A stretch of 64,000 nucleotides of DNA from the NCBI GenBank assembly GCA_965197725.1, contig CBDANQ010000061.1, positions 32,001 through 96,000 on the forward strand. Direction: 5' to 3'. A program made the position numbers and the translations under genes. Origin of the DNA: Longimicrobiales bacterium (GTDB lineage: Bacteria; Gemmatimonadota; Gemmatimonadetes; Longimicrobiales; Gaopeijiaceae). Positions within the stretch are counted from its first letter, which is position 1; each line of letters starts with the position of its first letter. Positions 43,039-50,070 of the stretch are shown here, in pieces. Below the pieces are notes generated by a model, which searched no databases, was not told the DNA's origin, and worked only from the letters and a program-made list of their open reading frames with translations.

Positions 43039-43932
43039 TCATCGAACGCCCTTCGGTGAGATCCCCGGGATGTCGACCCAGCCGAGCGCAGCCGCCCCCA
43101 CGATCGCGAGCAATATGATGATCAAGACGAGCAATAGGGGGCGCCCCGACCCGCTAGCGGCGCGAGCATCACCGCCCTCCGCGGCCTCGACGATCGATGC
43201 CTCCGCTTCGGGCAGCGCAGAGTCGGCAAGGTGGGCCGGCATACCCTCCTGCTCGGCACTCTGCTCGGAGTCACCCGCCCCCGCATCCACCAGACCCGCG
43301 AGCGGGTCTACGACCCCGGCCAGCTCGTCCGGGGGAGGCATATCGCGTGGGGTGCCCGAGGCCGGACCGGTCACCGCCCGGATCGGCGCCGCCGTGCCAT
43401 CTACCGCCGACCAGGCATCTTCAGTCGACCCCGCGAGCACAACCACGTCGGTCGCCATGTCCAAGATCGCCGACTTGCCATCTGATTCAGCCCCAACGTA
43501 CATGACCAGCGTGACACCGGCCTCCACGAAACCTCGGGACAAGCGTGTCCACCGCTCGCTCGCGAGGACCGCGGCGGGATCGGCGGTCGCCGTGCCCGCG
43601 GTGATAATGAAGAACTCACTCTCGTCGGTCCGCTTGGCAACGCGCCGCACGGACGAGCCGAAGAGCACGGTGTCCGTGACGCCTTCCGTGTTGTCGGTTT
43701 CGAGGCATTCATGAAGCGTCGCGAGCGCGAGCGCGGCATCAGCGAGTACGACCCTCCGACCAGACTTACTCCATGCCCTGACGATGTCGACGGTGGCGTT
43801 GATCGCCCACCCATCCTCCCGTGCGCTCCTGGTCGCGATTACCGCGACGAGCCTTCCCGGACGGTCGGCGTGCTCCGGAAGGAGCGGAGCGGCGCTTGCG
43901 TCGAAAGCGCTCCACTCGGGGAGGTCTGCCAT
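43039..43932 (-). CDS. Hypothetical protein with MinD/ParA/CpsD-like fold lacking Walker A and a C-terminal TM
   Basis: GRRVVLADA, LHE.L..DNTEGVTD; hydrophobic C-terminal helix. Confidence 0.55.
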   Translation of the reverse strand: MADLPEWSAFDASAAPLLPEHADRPGRLVAVIATRSAREDGWAINATVDIVRAWSKSGRRVVLADAALALATLHECLETDNTEGVTDTVLFGSSVRRVAKRTDESEFFIITAGTATADPAAVLASERWTRLSRGFVEAGVTLVMYVGAESDGKSAILDMATDVVVLAGSTEDAWSAVDGTAAPIRAVTGPASGTPRDMPPPDELAGVVDPLAGLVDAGAGDSEQSAEQEGMPAHLADSALPEAEASIVEAAEGGDARAASGSGRPLLLVLIIILLAIVGAAALGWVDIPGISPKGVR

Positions 43933-44104
43933 AGGCGTTGGAGGCTCGTGGTCGCTCCGCGACGGACGCGGAGTGGGCGATTCTTGGATCCATTCAATTT
44001 GCCACGGCATCGCTGCCGCGCCGGCAACAAGTTAGGTTCTCGGTGTCCGCGTAGCAAACTCGTCCATCCCCCAAAAACCCAAGCGTGCCGGGGCTTATTG
44101 AAGG

Positions 44105-44470
44105 TCAAGGCTCGTGGGCAGGCTCCCAACGGGGCGCGTCCCCCCAGAGATTCTCGAGCTGGTAGAAGTCGCGTGATCGCGGGTGGAATACGTGGACGAC
44201 GAAGTCGATGTAGTCCAGCAATACCCAGCGACCTCCGCTCAGCCCCTCGATGTGTGCGGGACGGACCTTCTCCTTCTTGAGTTCATCCACCACGTGTTCC
44301 GCGATTGCTTTGACCTGGACGTCCGAGGTCCCACTCGCAAGTACGAAGTAGTCGGTGGCGGTCGAAATGCCACGCAGATCCAGAATCAGGACGCCGTGTC
44401 CCTTGCTCTCGAGCGCGAGGTCGGCCGCGCGCGAGACTTCGGTCGGGAAGTTCCGTGCATCCGCCCTCAC
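44105..44470 (-). CDS. rsfS: Ribosome silencing factor
   Basis: TDYFVLASG.SD.QVKAIA, WVLLDY.DFVVHVF, FYQLENLW. Confidence 0.94.
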   Translation of the reverse strand: MRADARNFPTEVSRAADLALESKGHGVLILDLRGISTATDYFVLASGTSDVQVKAIAEHVVDELKKEKVRPAHIEGLSGGRWVLLDYIDFVVHVFHPRSRDFYQLENLWGDAPRWEPAHEP

Positions 44471-44475
44471 CGACC

Positions 44476-44931
44476 CTAGCCCTCTTCCCGCTCCACCCGC
44501 ACCTCGATGCTCACCTCGACCTCAGCGTCTAGCCGGATCGTGATGGCTTCGACACCGAGCGCCTTGATCGGCTCATCGAGAAGGACCGCCCTTTTGTCGA
44601 GCTCGAAGTCCAGCTCGCCCTCGTTGGTGCGCTCGACGATGTCCATGGCAGTCACGGAACCGAACAGCTTGCCGTCGTCCCCTGCGCGCTCCACGAACGT
44701 GAGCGATACGCCCTCGAGCTGCGAAGCCCGCCGATGTGCTTCGAGGTAGTCGTGGCGTGACTTCTCTTCAGCGCGCGTCCGCTCCTCCTCCAGGCGTCGA
44801 ATATTCGCATCGCTGGCCGTAAACGCGAGCCCCTGCGGAATGAGGTAGTTGCGGCCATACCCAGGCCGGACCTGCACGACCTCGCCAGCCTCTCCGAGGT
44901 TCTCGACAGCCTTCTTCAGGATCAACTTCAT
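44476..44931 (-). CDS. rplI: 50S ribosomal protein bL9
   Basis: V.NLG..G.VV.V.PGYGRNYLIP, GKLFGSVT. Confidence 0.96.
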   Translation of the reverse strand: MKLILKKAVENLGEAGEVVQVRPGYGRNYLIPQGLAFTASDANIRRLEEERTRAEEKSRHDYLEAHRRASQLEGVSLTFVERAGDDGKLFGSVTAMDIVERTNEGELDFELDKRAVLLDEPIKALGVEAITIRLDAEVEVSIEVRVEREEG

Positions 44932-44949
44932 CGTTCCTCCAAAGCGTCT

Positions 44950-45894
44950 TCAGGCGGCGAGTTCCACCACGCGTCCGCGTAGGTCCAGATAGATGTCACC
45001 CAGTCCGATCACCAGCGCGCCACCAAATACCAGAGTTGGCACGAGCAAGAGCCCGACCACCGTTACGAAAAAAGCGATCAGCGACACACCGCCACGCATG
45101 AACACGACGACGGCGGCGCCCCGCAAAGCGCACAGCGTCCCCATGAAGACTACCGCGTTGGCCCCCACACGCCCGAGCGGCTCGCCCACGCGCGTGACGA
45201 GGAGCAGAAGCCCCCCGACGAAGACCCATACCAGTTGGTCGTTGAATCGAAAATCTTTCAGGGGGCTCAGGCCCTGTTCACCAGTGTCCGTCAGGCGGGC
45301 ATACATCCACCACACGACGCACAGGGCTGCCATGGAGGCCACGCCGGTAACCGCCGGAAACACCTCCAGCTGAGCTTCCGCCATGTCGTACATCGACAGG
45401 ACGAGAGCTGGTGCGAGCGCTTCACCCCCACGCAACATCACGACTTGGTCCAGCATCTGGGCGATCATGAATTGGACCCGATCCCTGATCGCCCAATCCA
45501 GAGCGCTCCACGCTCCTCGGCGGAGCGCGATGAAGCCCGCCGTGACGGTGCCGGCACCGAGGACGGCGATCAAAGCCCGTGTTGACGGATTCGACGCCGG
45601 CCGCGCCAGCGACAGCGCGACGAACCACCCGCCGAGGAGGAGCGCCCAGGCTCTATCGATGAACCACACTCCATCGTGGACCCCCGATACGGTCACCAAC
45701 ATCGCGAGCGAGGCAGCGGCGAACGTCCCGAAGCCCCGCGTGCCGTTCACGCCGATGAGCAGCAAGAAGGGGATCGCAAGCAGCACGCCGGCGTTGGTGA
45801 CCGAGGCGAAGAAGACGACCGCGAGCAGTGCGGCGGCGCCACGCCAGCCGCCACCTTCCCTGGTCGAGCCCTCTAGCGGACTGGGATCCGACAC
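44950..45894 (-). CDS. DUF2232/YybS-like membrane protein
   Basis: Multi-TM protein between rpsR and rplI; LKDFRFNDQLVW, GLGDIYLDLR. Confidence 0.75.
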   Translation of the reverse strand: MSDPSPLEGSTREGGGWRGAAALLAVVFFASVTNAGVLLAIPFLLLIGVNGTRGFGTFAAASLAMLVTVSGVHDGVWFIDRAWALLLGGWFVALSLARPASNPSTRALIAVLGAGTVTAGFIALRRGAWSALDWAIRDRVQFMIAQMLDQVVMLRGGEALAPALVLSMYDMAEAQLEVFPAVTGVASMAALCVVWWMYARLTDTGEQGLSPLKDFRFNDQLVWVFVGGLLLLVTRVGEPLGRVGANAVVFMGTLCALRGAAVVVFMRGGVSLIAFFVTVVGLLLVPTLVFGGALVIGLGDIYLDLRGRVVELAA

Positions 45895-45900
45895 GTTCGG

Positions 45901-46560
45901 TCAGCCTTCGGTACGCCGCGTATACGGGACCAACGCGAGATATCGTGCGCGCTTCACAGCGCGGCCAAGCTGACGCTGGAAACCCGCGGAGACCTTCGTA
46001 GTACGCTTCGGCAGAATCTTGCCCTGCTCGGTCATGAAATGTGATAGCGTGCCAACGTCCTTGTAATCGAGGACCAGGATGGGTGGACCCTCCATCCGGC
46101 GACGACGCCCGCGCGGGCCCGAGAAGTCCTGGGGCCCTGCACGGTTGTGAGCCTCCTCTTCGACCGCTTCCTCTTCCGGCTCGTCTTCCTCCTGCTCGTC
46201 CTCGTCGCTTTCGTCCCCCTCTTCGAAGGCACGAGGCCGGGCCTCGCCCAGAACCGAGGCGCCGCTGGTGAGTTCACCCTCGCTCACCACGAGCAGATAC
46301 CGTATCACGTCGCCGTCGAGCTTGAGCAGGCGCTCGTACTCCGGCAGGGCCTCCGGAGCGGACGTGAAGTGCGCCACGACGTAGTAGCCAGCCGAGAGCT
46401 TGTTGATCGGGTACGCGAGCTGGCGGGTTCCCCAGTGATCGATCGCGGAGACCTCACCGCCCTTGGAAGTCACCAGCTCGTGGAGTTTCTCGAGCTTGGC
46501 CGTGACGGCGTCCTCTAGGAGCGCCGGGTCGAGAATGTACACGACCTCGTAAAGCCGCAT
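45901..46560 (-). CDS. rpsF-rpsR: Fused 30S ribosomal proteins bS6-bS18
   Basis: N-terminal [25 protein letters not shown] (S6); acidic linker; C-terminal DYKD...[13 protein letters not shown]...[17 protein letters not shown] (S18); no stop between. Confidence 0.92.
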
Positions 46561-46714
46561 GATTCGTTCCCTCGGTCCGTGGTTGGAACGGGCCCCGTCA
46601 TGTCGACCATCTCGGCTGCGGCGCCAGTGGTAGGACGGAGCGGGATAACTGTGTGTGCCGCTTCCGGCACGGCGGAAAAGCTAGTGGATCGGGAGTGGAG
46701 GAGGAAGCGCTTAT

Positions 46715-47914
46715 CTAGTTCAGCGCCGTCTGAACGGCCGCGATCAGCCCCGGATATCGTGCGTACGCCCAGCGGGCCTCTTCGACGTCCAAGCGCTCGC
46801 GGTTGGTGTGCGCGAAGCGCTCCTCACCCGGCGCGAAGCCTACCGTCGGAATCCCGTGTACACCGCACGACCAGCCACCGTCGGTGGCGAAAGTCCACGG
46901 GCGCACCTCGGCGGCCTCGTCGGGAGCCCCTAGTCGGCCGACGGCGCGGGCCGCCGCGCCCACGATGGGATGCGACGGGTCCATGAGGAAACCGGGTGAG
47001 AAGAGGTCTCGGTCGGCCACGAAGCCCGTATAGGTGACCTGACGCTCGGTCGCCATGCGCACCTCGTATCCGAGTGCGTCTGGGACCGACGGGATGCGCG
47101 CCTCGACAGCTTCTCGCACGCGACGAACGAGCGACTCGTGGTCGTCGCCGGGAAGGAATCTCCAATCCAGCGCCACGATCGCTTGATCGGGAATCACGTT
47201 TCGAGTCTGCGGCAGCACATTCACCATAGTCGCAATCAAGCTCGCAGTGCCCAACAGCTCGTCCGATTCTTGGCTTGCCGCCAGGTCTCGGACCGCTAGC
47301 AGTACGTCGCCCAGCAGGTCGAGCGCGTTGGCCGCCCTTTCAGGGGCGCTGGCATGGCCGGCCACCCCTGTCAGGACGACCTCGAGCTCTGCTCGACCCC
47401 GGTGGCCGATACAGATGTCTCCATGCGTGCATTCGCCGATGATCACCACACGGGGCTCTACGCCTCCGGATTCCAGCAGGTGCTTCATGCCGAGGCCGCC
47501 GCACTCCTCGTAGACCGTATGCGCGACGATGACGTCGCCTGGTGCTTCGTCCATCATGGACGCGGCCGCGTAGGTCTGAAGCGCAAGCGGGCCCTTGATG
47601 TCCATGGCGCCCCGACCGTGTAGGAAGCCGTCCCGGAGGTCGCCACTGAACGGCGGCACTTCCCACTCCGAGTGATCCCCCTCCGCCACGACGTCGAGGT
47701 GGCAGTTGAGCATCGCCGCCGGGGCGTCACCCCGCCCTCGCGCGACCCCGATCACGTTGCCCGCGTCGTCTACACGCGCGTCCTCGAGTCCGATCGCCTC
47801 CATCTCCTGGAATAAACGCCGAGCGACGTCGTCCTCCTGGCCCGAGAGACCCGGGATAGCAATGAGATCAGCGGCAAACGCCAGCGCGTTCTCGAAATTC
47901 GCTGCCTTGGCCAT
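46715..47914 (-). CDS. M20-family metallopeptidase/amidohydrolase (ArgE/YgeY-like)
   Basis: HLDVV, GRGAMDIKG, YEE, IGE, GHAS.P, F.TDG, AHT. Confidence 0.88.
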   Translation of the reverse strand: MAKAANFENALAFAADLIAIPGLSGQEDDVARRLFQEMEAIGLEDARVDDAGNVIGVARGRGDAPAAMLNCHLDVVAEGDHSEWEVPPFSGDLRDGFLHGRGAMDIKGPLALQTYAAASMMDEAPGDVIVAHTVYEECGGLGMKHLLESGGVEPRVVIIGECTHGDICIGHRGRAELEVVLTGVAGHASAPERAANALDLLGDVLLAVRDLAASQESDELLGTASLIATMVNVLPQTRNVIPDQAIVALDWRFLPGDDHESLVRRVREAVEARIPSVPDALGYEVRMATERQVTYTGFVADRDLFSPGFLMDPSHPIVGAAARAVGRLGAPDEAAEVRPWTFATDGGWSCGVHGIPTVGFAPGEERFAHTNRERLDVEEARWAYARYPGLIAAVQTALN

Positions 47915-47937
47915 CATCTACCCGATCTTTTCTAAGG

Positions 47938-50070
47938 TCAACCCAAGAGCCCCTGGATCACGTGCACGAGCCACGATGTGGACTGCGCGTCCACCTCTAT
48001 GCCGTGATGAGCCGCGAACCACGGTGCGAGCACGAGCGACACCACGCTCATGAGCTTGATGAGGATGTTCAGCGACGGGCCCGAAGTGTCCTTGAACGGA
48101 TCACCCACGGTGTCACCGATGACCGCCGCCATGTGCGGATCGGAGCCCTTTCCGCCGTATGCACCACCCTCGATGTACTTCTTCGCGTTGTCCCACGCAC
48201 CACCGGAGTTGGCCATGAAGAGGGCCATGAGCACGCCGGTCACCAGCGCGCCGGCGAGCATGCCTCCGAGCGCGGTCACACCCATGAAGTACCCGACGAT
48301 GACCGGCGCCAGTACGGCGGTGAGTCCGGGCAGGATCATTTCGCGTAGCGCAGCCTGCGTCGAGATATCGATGCAGCGCGCCGAGTCCGGTTTCGCGGTG
48401 CCTTCCAGGATGCCCGGGATCTCCCTGAACTGTCGGCGTACCTCGTCCACCATGCCCTGAGCCGCTCGACCCACCGCCGTCATCGTGAGCGCGGCCACGA
48501 AGAACGGCAGCATACCACCGATGAACAGGCCGATCACCACGATCGGATCGATGATGTCGATGCCGGTCTCCTGCAGTCCCACACTGGCCGAGTAGGCCGA
48601 GAAGAGCGCGAGCGCCGTGAGCGCGGCAGAGCCGATAGCGAAGCCTTTGCCTATGGCGGCCGTCGTATTGCCGATCGCGTCGAGCGAGTCGGTGATCTCG
48701 CGGGTCTCCGGCCCCAGGCCGCTCATCTCGCTGATGCCACCCGCATTGTCGGCGATCGGCCCGTACGCGTCGACGGTCATCGTCACGCCCACGGTCGCGA
48801 GCATCCCGACCGCGGAGATGCCGATGCCGTACAGACCGGCAAACTGGAATGACGTCCCGATCGCCACACAGATCAGGATGACGGGGACCACCGTCGACTC
48901 CATGCCAACCGCGAGACCGGCAATGAGGTTCGTCGCCGCACCCGTCTGGCTCGCCTCCGCAATCTTCCGTACGGGACCCGCCGCCGTGTAGTACTGTGTC
49001 ACCATGCCTATGAGGATGCCTGCCATCGTACCGGCAACGATCGCGATCCATGGACCGGTCGCTCCGTAGGTGACCCCCGCATCGGTCGTGTACGTGATGC
49101 GCATGGCCTGAACGACGAAGTACATCGTGCCGAGGAAAAGGCCGCCGGCGATCCAGGTCGTGCCGTGTAGGGCGCGGGAAGCATCGCGTTTCTCGAGCAT
49201 CTTCATAGCCCCGATGCCCACCAGCGACGCGATGAGCCCGACCATCACCGTGACGAGCGGCAGCGCGACCGCGGCAGCACGATTCTCCGCCATCGCGGAG
49301 GCCGTGGCGCCGATCGCGATCGTGGCCACGATCGAGCCCACGTACGACTCGAAGATATCCGCCCCCATACCCGCCACGTCGCCGACGTTGTCACCGACAT
49401 TGTCCGCGATCGTGGCAGGGTTTCGCGGATCGTCCTCGGGGATGCCGGCCTCGAGCTTTCCGACCAGGTCGGCACCGACGTCCGCTGCCTTTGTGTAGAT
49501 ACCGCCGCCGACGCGTGCGAAGAGGGCGATCGAGCTCGCGCCCATCGCGAAGCCGGAGACGATCTTGGCGAAGCCCGAGAACTCACCCGTGCCCGGCACC
49601 GCGTCCGCGGCGAAGACTAGATAGAGCACGCCAAGGCCGAGCAGGCCGAGCGACGCCACAGCGAGACCCATGACGGCTCCGCCGAAGAAGGCGATGCGTA
49701 GCGCCTTGCCCTGACCCTCCTCGTTGGCCGCGGCCGCGGTCCTCGTATTCGCCCGAGTGGCGGCCTTCATGCCCGCGAAACCGGCCGCGACCGAGCTCAA
49801 AGCGCCGAAGACGTACGCAAGCGCCGGGGTCGTGCCGATTCCCGGCGCCAGGCTCAACAGAATCGCCACGACGACGACGAAGCCCGCCAACACGCTGTAC
49901 TCGCGCCGGAGGAACGTCATCGCGCCGTCGTGGATCTGCTCCCCGATGTCGATCATGACGTCGGTCCCGGCCGGCTGCTTTTTCACGTAGCCGTAGGTAG
50001 CCGCCGCGATGCCGAGGCCCACGAGGCCAAGGATCCAGGCGAAGTCGGTGAATGCCACGAAGTCGGTCAT
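47938..50070 (-). CDS. hppA: Membrane pyrophosphatase, K+-dependent, probably Na+-translocating
   Basis: [26 protein letters not shown] (TM6 Glu), GNTTAA (Ala indicates K+-dependent), [10 protein letters not shown]. Confidence 0.93.

Follow-up and report, generated by a model that had tools for sequence, protein, structure and literature searches.

A family-wide fusion of the ribosomal protein genes rpsF and rpsR in uncultured Gemmatimonadota, preceded by an S6:S18-type leader

Ribosomal proteins S6 and S18 normally pair as separate chains, and S6:S18 binding is textbook knowledge. The heterodimer is an assembly intermediate that binds after S15. To our knowledge, family-wide fixed fusions of two bacterial ribosomal proteins are uncommon, and a search of the open-access PMC and bioRxiv literature found no paper describing an S6-S18 fusion, which does not prove that there is none.

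The pair is also associated with a described regulatory RNA, S6S18CBM or rpsF_leader (Matelska 2013, PMC3854524; Fu 2014, PMC3895269; Babina 2015, PMC4647458). According to the available text of the first two papers, the Shine-Dalgarno sequence (SD) of this element lies in an outer stem, a CCR located 2-3 nt before the SD belongs to a bulged loop of 8-23 nt, and a further hairpin is variable (PMC3854524, PMC3895269). In E. coli, S6S18CBM is described as mediating translational repression by the S6:S18 complex (PMC4647458, Babina 2015). On the protein side, a Lys and an Arg of S18 are described as reading the CCG bulge of 16S rRNA (K71 and R74 in T. thermophilus, K60 and R63 in E. coli; PMC3854524). 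S18 itself comes in two forms in the source available to us, a CXXC-bearing, zinc-binding (C+) form described in mycobacteria and the C- form that is used by E. coli (PMC6094098).

Here we describe a locus in which S6 and S18 are encoded by a single open reading frame (ORF). It lies within the window, the whole 64,000-nt stretch of DNA that was analysed, and comprises the following features.

46715-47917, minus strand: M20 peptidase gene, upstream of the fusion gene (Pfam, ORF listing)
46561..46645, minus strand: structured 5' leader of the S6S18CBM / rpsF_leader type (alignment of 65 leaders)
45901..46560, minus strand: rpsF::rpsR fusion ORF, 219 aa, ATG start (ORF listing and sequence)
46288..46551, minus strand: bS6 domain, aa 4-91 (Pfam)
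46135..46266, minus strand: acidic linker, about aa 99-142, which matches the native acidic C-terminal tail of S6
46081..46134, minus strand: conserved junction motif, spanning what used to be the end of rpsF, the start of rpsR and the basic N-terminus of S18
45931..46074, minus strand: bS18 core in the zinc-free (C-) form with KRAR kept, aa 163-210 (Pfam)
44950..45894, minus strand: multi-pass membrane protein of 314 aa, flanked by the fusion gene and rplI (ORF)
44476..44931, minus strand: rplI, bL9 (Pfam)
44105..44470, minus strand: rsfS, ribosomal silencing factor (Pfam)

The sequence-only reading had reported an S6 domain, an acidic run, a basic GRRRR patch and an S18 domain in one stop-free frame of 219 aa, and this is what the ORF contains. 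Like the two chains of the canonical bS6:bS18 heterodimer of the 30S platform, both domains match their family models above cut-off. The Pfam models are Ribosomal_S6 (PF01250; E 1e-28, 99.8 bits against a cut-off of 27) and Ribosomal_S18 (PF01084; E 5.1e-20, 71.8 bits against 21), and the NCBIfam equivalog models are TIGR00166 for S6 (aa 1-93, 85.1 bits against 42.9) and TIGR00165 for S18 (aa 161-215, 74.6 bits against 38.75). Among the PDB matches listed, the solved chains nearest to the S6 half are those of S6 from Bacillus-type ribosomes (E 7e-18), and none of the 60 chains listed out of 117 matches spans both domains. An AlphaFold2 model of the fusion, made with a 60-sequence alignment, folds both domains with a mean pLDDT of 60.5 and a pTM of 0.51, values too weak for judging S6:S18 docking. 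In the same model pLDDT is below 50 at aa 109-154, and the linker is predicted to be disordered.

Two residues of the S18 KRAR motif, K203 and R206, are invariant in 60 fused sequences, and this region aligns to AIKRSRYLAL of a solved S18 chain. Judged from the motif, K203 and R206 would correspond to the Lys and Arg that read the bulged CCG in canonical S18 as described in PMC3854524. The acidic C-terminal tail of the S6 part is a further likeness, here to E. coli S6. The differences from the canonical pair are that the two proteins form one polypeptide, so the C-terminus of S6 is no longer free, and that the N-terminus of S18 is replaced by the conserved junction motif.

The operon was noted earlier as lacking ssb, and the annotated same-strand neighbours agree. 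Two ssb genes are present in the same genome, far from the rpsF operon (contigs C59:4960-5265 and C56:73239-73547). This genome, a metagenome-assembled genome (MAG) of 61 contigs that is 88.9% complete, contains one S6 match and one S18 match, both in the same 259-aa open frame. A check for a separate rpsR therefore turned up none in this 88.9% of a genome, and the fusion is the sole S6 and the sole S18 found. The 314-aa membrane protein has no Pfam or NCBIfam match. Its slot is the same in fused and unfused relatives, with similar hydrophobic ORFs after S18 in L023, L025, L029 and L040, and is reminiscent of that of yybS, which precedes rplI in Bacillus. A short hairpin, GUGCCG-GAAG-CGGCAC (46655-46670, minus strand), separates the peptidase stop from the leader, and the same-genus loci L004-L006 also have a hairpin at the matching place. 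This element may terminate the gene upstream or belong to the leader.

We next compared the family of the window's genome (f1) with sister families of the same order (f2 and f3). In a scan of 40 relatives, S6 and S18 share a stop-free frame in all 24 f1 genomes, with a single match in 22 of them and two in-frame pieces in the other two (G009 and G022). S6 and S18 were matched separately in every genome of f2 (8) and f3 (8); an in-frame stop between them is shown in 9 of these 16, and 9 of the 16 were checked by translation. A larger sample of 401 genomes from the phylum matched 69 of 70 f1 genomes, or 70 with the window's own genome included, and gave no match in G390, an f1 genome that is 93% complete. 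Among the 70 matched genomes, 53 give full-span, stop-free rows and 17 give two-piece matches; in 16 of the 17 both pieces have equal open-frame length, and G196 has one piece listed. Translation confirmed that G009, G022 and G280, all with two-piece matches, are fused. Outside f1, all 29 rows covering both domains carry one or two in-frame stops. An unpublished genome, G025, is included in the tallies of the 40 relatives, the 401 genomes and RimK (below), and the 401-genome tally additionally includes G096, G192 and G214.

The matched f1 genomes with an open frame include several single-contig assemblies. In public data, the best 80 of 303 related loci, with one genome per species, were all fused on direct translation (80/80). 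These are MAGs from many projects, titled as Gemmatimonadota or a subgroup of it except for one 'uncultured bacterium', and the best 120 of 1778 protein homologues all have both Pfam domains. The fused genomes are all uncultured MAGs, so the fusion is known from genes alone. Logan contigs of two other studies run through the linker either gap-free or with +1 and -1 gaps that cancel out, so that the frame shows no net change. X3 and X6 contribute no more than 241-nt pieces over this region. A contig of X1, which may be the source sample, covers the stretch with 0 differences. An X17 contig from an RNA library covers 46449-46663, which is not proof of transcription.

The unfused comparison set, 16 translated loci from f2, f3, f5 and f7, indicates how the fusion could have arisen. 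In all 16, rpsR directly follows rpsF with no ssb between them, and the rpsF stop and the rpsR start lie -20 to +51 nt apart, in most cases 1-4 nt. Since the two genes are adjacent in unfused relatives, ssb was already missing from this position before the genes were joined. Nothing more than removal of the rpsF stop was required to fuse them, apart from a correction of the frame in some arrangements. The gap is exactly +3 nt and in the same frame in 7 of the 16 (including L024, L026, L027, L028, L040 and L041). In these loci the stop and the rpsR ATG are one codon apart, and a single base change would recreate the fusion. A low-level readthrough product in such relatives is conceivable.

To place the fusion on a phylogeny, as had been suggested, we built a quick maximum-likelihood tree from the S18 core joined to residues 1-98 of S6, with 94 distinct fused rows and 16 unfused ones. 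All fused sequences fall on one side of a single branch with an SH-aLRT of 99, to which the columns that change from Cys to non-Cys contribute. This placement fits a single origin of the fusion in the family. The ancestor would have had rpsF and rpsR directly adjacent, with neither ssb nor priB between them; loss of the rpsF stop and adjustment of the frame would then have joined the genes in a single event at the base of a family-level group within the uncultured Gemmatimonadota.

We examined the anatomy of the fused protein in 103 fused loci, which represent 94 distinct proteins, 83 of them scored by motif. The proteins are 206-345 aa long with a median of 216. From the last S6 strand to the junction there are 38-180 aa (median 48), with a median Asp plus Glu fraction of 0.43 in the 83 scored proteins. 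This linker had been proposed to be a polyanionic, RNA-like element made by the fusion. That proposal is contradicted by the unfused relatives, in which S6 ends in an acidic Asp/Glu tail in 16 of 16, as with the 17 consecutive Asp of L023. Because of these tails, and because E. coli S6 aligns to residues 1-131 of the query, well into the acidic stretch, we identify the linker as the ancestral tail of S6. The length of the tether appears to be almost unconstrained. Very long linkers, rich in Ala, Gly, Asp and Glu, occur in L038 (G280), L036 (G009), L037 (G022), P0121 and P0122, whose proteins are 243-345 aa long.

The linker ends in a junction with the consensus PPEF-x-G-x-RGRRRR-(M/H/V)-EGP, which is conserved among the scored fused proteins. 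No variation occurs among 60 fused sequences at P143, G148, G151, R153, E157, G158 and P159. The upstream half of the junction precedes the old S18 start and is therefore conserved as protein. A link to RimK, the ligase that adds glutamate to the S6 C-terminus, was also considered. TIGR00768 scores above cut-off in 11 of 41 genomes (7/25 in f1, 4/8 in f3 and 0/8 in f2), with no match above cut-off in the window's own genome. Its presence shows no pattern with the fusion, and we dropped it as uninformative.

Upstream of the fusion, the leader folds into a structure with two main helices. In helix H1, UCCC (46642-46645) pairs with the SD GGGA (46568-46571), and in H2, 46634-46641 pairs with 46592-46599, with a variable top. 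The inner hairpin in the window is GCUCCGUC...GACGGGGC. A bulged loop of 20 nt in the window contains a small CCGU/ACGG helix (46587-46590 with 46577-46580), and a CCG at 46573-46575 sits one base 5' of the SD GGGA, a spacing of 1 nt that is also that of the consensus. The structured element stops 7 nt before the fusion ATG. Of 94 distinct fused genes, 93 have an SD-like motif no more than 20 nt before the start, and in 92 of 93 distinct leaders a CCR is closely followed by an SD-like motif, 83 of these having a 5' YCCCGC block as well.

Pairing was scored in 65 leaders. Paired cells make up 96.2%, and sliding the partner by 1-3 columns lowers this to 28-52%; the former fraction is inflated, as the structure was derived from the same sequences that were scored. 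The UCCC-GGGA pairing of H1 holds in 95.8% of cells. In H2, 5 of 8 pairs change on both sides (for example GC 47, AU 9, UA 2), and none of 500 shuffles reached the observed covariation score. Covariation is scarce in H1 and in the small loop helix, as both hardly vary. Rfam 15, which may not hold this family, gave no match to the leader in the window at 43500-48000 with E up to 1, and no ribosomal protein leader in 20 related loci with E up to 0.1. Three sub-threshold matches to microRNA families in one hairpin of L031, from the same 20 loci, were taken as chance.

The leader resembles S6S18CBM/rpsF_leader, as far as the available text of the papers describes it, in that it lies immediately upstream of rpsF (Matelska 2013, PMC3854524; Fu 2014, PMC3895269; Babina 2015, PMC4647458), has the SD as the 3' strand of the outer stem, presents a conserved CCG in a bulged loop just 5' of the SD, and has an inner hairpin that is variable in length with compensatory changes (PMC3854524, PMC3895269). 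It differs in the position of the CCG, which is 1 nt from the SD here and 2-3 nt in the published description (PMC3854524, PMC3895269), in the extra conserved 4-bp helix of the loop, and in the presumed ligand, here a putative single chain instead of two. A leader of this kind also precedes the unfused genes of relatives, where CUCCU pairs with AGGAG. Altered autoregulation had been suggested as a consequence of the fusion. Instead, the regulation looks conserved, since an RNA structure of the rpsF-leader type precedes the fused gene. Given that this leader has the published S6:S18-binding architecture, classical autoregulation has probably been kept, with the single-chain protein likely acting as the heterodimer does.

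In front of many leaders there is also a box resembling TATA(C/T)TT, some 10-15 nt before the conserved AUCCC (L011, L012, L015, L096, L097, L100, L107, L108, L115, L120 and L121). This box is probably a -10 element, in which case the transcript would start just before the leader.

The S18 part of the fusion was reported to lack its zinc ligands, and the ORF has zero Cys past the junction. Across the family, Cys is absent from the S18 part in all 83 scored fused proteins, and by eye from 11 printed unscored sequences. The unfused relatives (f2, f3, f5 and f7) have a CxxC near the N-terminus and a CxxH in the core in 15 of 16 S18 proteins, and the absence of ligands here is a derived loss. The exception, L028 (G260, f5), has a degraded zinc motif, with other residues in place of the second CxxC cysteine and of the CxxH cysteine; from its sequence, this is an independent loss of the zinc site without a fusion. 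A general zinc economy of the lineage does not account for the Cys-free S18, given that the three other zinc-type proteins examined, S14, L31 and L33, stay C+. They were looked at in five genomes, three from f1 and one each from f2 and f3, and every one of the 15 proteins has at least 4 Cys in the usual CxxC pairs. Therefore, among the four zinc-type proteins examined, the ligand loss is specific to S18. The situation is comparable to the C+ and C- S18 proteins of mycobacteria as described in the available text of PMC6094098, in that the fused S18 is C- and the S18 of the unfused sister families is C+. It differs from that description in having neither a paralogue pair nor a sign of a zinc switch, as the C- form is the sole copy and is fused (PMC6094098).

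Other proteins combine the two domains as well. A search of 1.84 billion cluster representatives found many proteins of 149-295 aa that match both halves at 30-58% identity. We picked 38 distant representatives by length and match pattern from 150 listed, and 37 of these have both S6 and S18 Pfam domains. The remaining one, P0192, lacks S18 and instead carries two S6 domains in tandem over 189 aa. A cluster look-up of 10 distant fusions showed that 8 are singletons in their 90% cluster; the better-supported clusters are two small ones with 3 members each and the Gemmatimonadota cluster. Fusions from outside the Gemmatimonadota mostly have short linkers (0-40 aa) that are basic or neutral. Compared to these two-domain proteins, the acidic tether, the PPEF junction and the documented change from C+ to C- are specific to this family. 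What is new relative to other fusions is the inherited acidic tether, the conserved junction, a zinc-ligand loss confined to S18 and the retained S6:S18-type leader. We consider the fusion a real and tidy variant rather than a new kind of system.

An open frame in a fragmented MAG, at 61 contigs and 88.9% completeness, that runs through a low-complexity, GC-rich linker could result from an indel or a missed stop introduced during assembly, binning or sequencing. The sequence-only reading had argued against an assembly slip from the coherent composition of the linker; its conclusion stands, but composition is a weaker argument than conservation of the frame. The frame is open in all 70 matched family genomes and in the best 80 of 303 public loci, it is always kept even though linker length varies among relatives, and the contigs of two other studies show no separating indel across the linker. 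Because the open frame is kept across about 100 independent genomes, the gene fusion is genuine and no slip, and an artefact is effectively refuted, with a probability we regard as negligible. A genuinely fused ORF could also be made into two proteins, by internal initiation near Met156 or by proteolysis in the disordered linker, and ribosomes would then hold ordinary separate S6 and S18. A Met follows the RRRR patch in 59 of the 83 scored fused proteins, the linker, predicted to be disordered, would be accessible to proteases, and the tight coupling of rpsF and rpsR in unfused relatives means that a habit of reinitiation could persist. However, the position after RRRR is H (14), V (6), L (2), T (1) or F (1) in the other 24, an SD-like motif occurs within 20 nt upstream of the junction Met in only 11 of 62 Met cases, and the PPEF-x-G-x-RGRRRR segment upstream of the old S18 start is conserved as protein, which is unexpected for a discarded spacer. 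These sequences share no conserved internal start for S18, and production of two proteins seems quite unlikely.

A more far-reaching proposal is that the fusion is adaptive and tied to loss of the zinc site, the tether to S6 replacing the CxxC...CxxH knuckle by holding the N-terminal segment of S18 and stabilising the dimer, and thereby allowing or compensating for the loss of zinc. The pattern of presence and absence would suit this, with CxxC...CxxH in 15 of 16 unfused relatives and no Cys in any of the 83 fused S18 parts, as would the restriction of the loss to S18 while S14, L31 and L33 keep 4 Cys in 3 of 3 f1 genomes. The remodelled junction sits exactly where the first Cys pair was, and the full zinc motif is present in none of 31 scored distant fused proteins. 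Against it, zinc-free S18 is common without fusion, for example the E. coli C- form as described in PMC6094098, and the motif is also degraded in the unfused L028. Both changes fall on one branch and amount to a single event, which could be coincidence, and the link between fusion and zinc loss is therefore only a hypothesis, one that we hold to be doubtful. We give a similarly low standing to its specific form, in which the peptide link and the PPEF-RGRRRR junction would do the former job of zinc and the single-chain protein alone would repress the rpsF leader. If true, it would be a natural swap of a ribosomal-protein metal site for a peptide bond. The swap would run opposite to mitoribosomes, in which a shared metal cluster links bS6m and bS18m.

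We favor a fixed, lineage-specific rpsF-rpsR fusion, joined once from adjacent genes at the base of the family and giving a single-chain product, and consider this reading very probable. The product would consist of the S6 domain, the disordered acidic tail of S6 as a tether, the remodelled junction and the zinc-free S18 core. It is most likely incorporated into the 30S platform as an S6:S18 'heterodimer' that is already formed within one chain. The fixed 1:1 stoichiometry proposed earlier would follow from the single ORF if it is translated whole, and may be of benefit. The protein is probably also its own translational repressor, acting through the conserved leader, to which it would bind and which would hide the SD in a stem and present the bulged CCG, as published for the separate S6:S18 complex. 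An effect on initiation or a role at the anti-SD had been proposed too, and nothing in our analyses points to either. Anti-SD sequestration in the style of the Bacteroidia was set aside on the paper's description alone, the mechanism resting on residues that its available text calls uniquely conserved in that phylum (PMC7797042).

The fusion would represent a natural single-chain version of the S6:S18 heterodimer assembly intermediate. It would show that a free S6 C-terminus and a free S18 N-terminus are dispensable, and that the acidic tail of S6 tolerates lengths from 38 to 180 residues. With a fused and zinc-free form next to separate and zinc-binding forms, this family and its sister families could be used to probe the purpose of the S18 zinc site, and the fusion could serve as a one-protein ligand in studies of the rpsF leader. 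In the source annotation these proteins are usually named 'S6' or 'S18' alone, and genomes of the family can therefore wrongly appear to be without S6 or S18. One JGI name gives both, 'ribosomal protein S18/ribosomal protein S6'.
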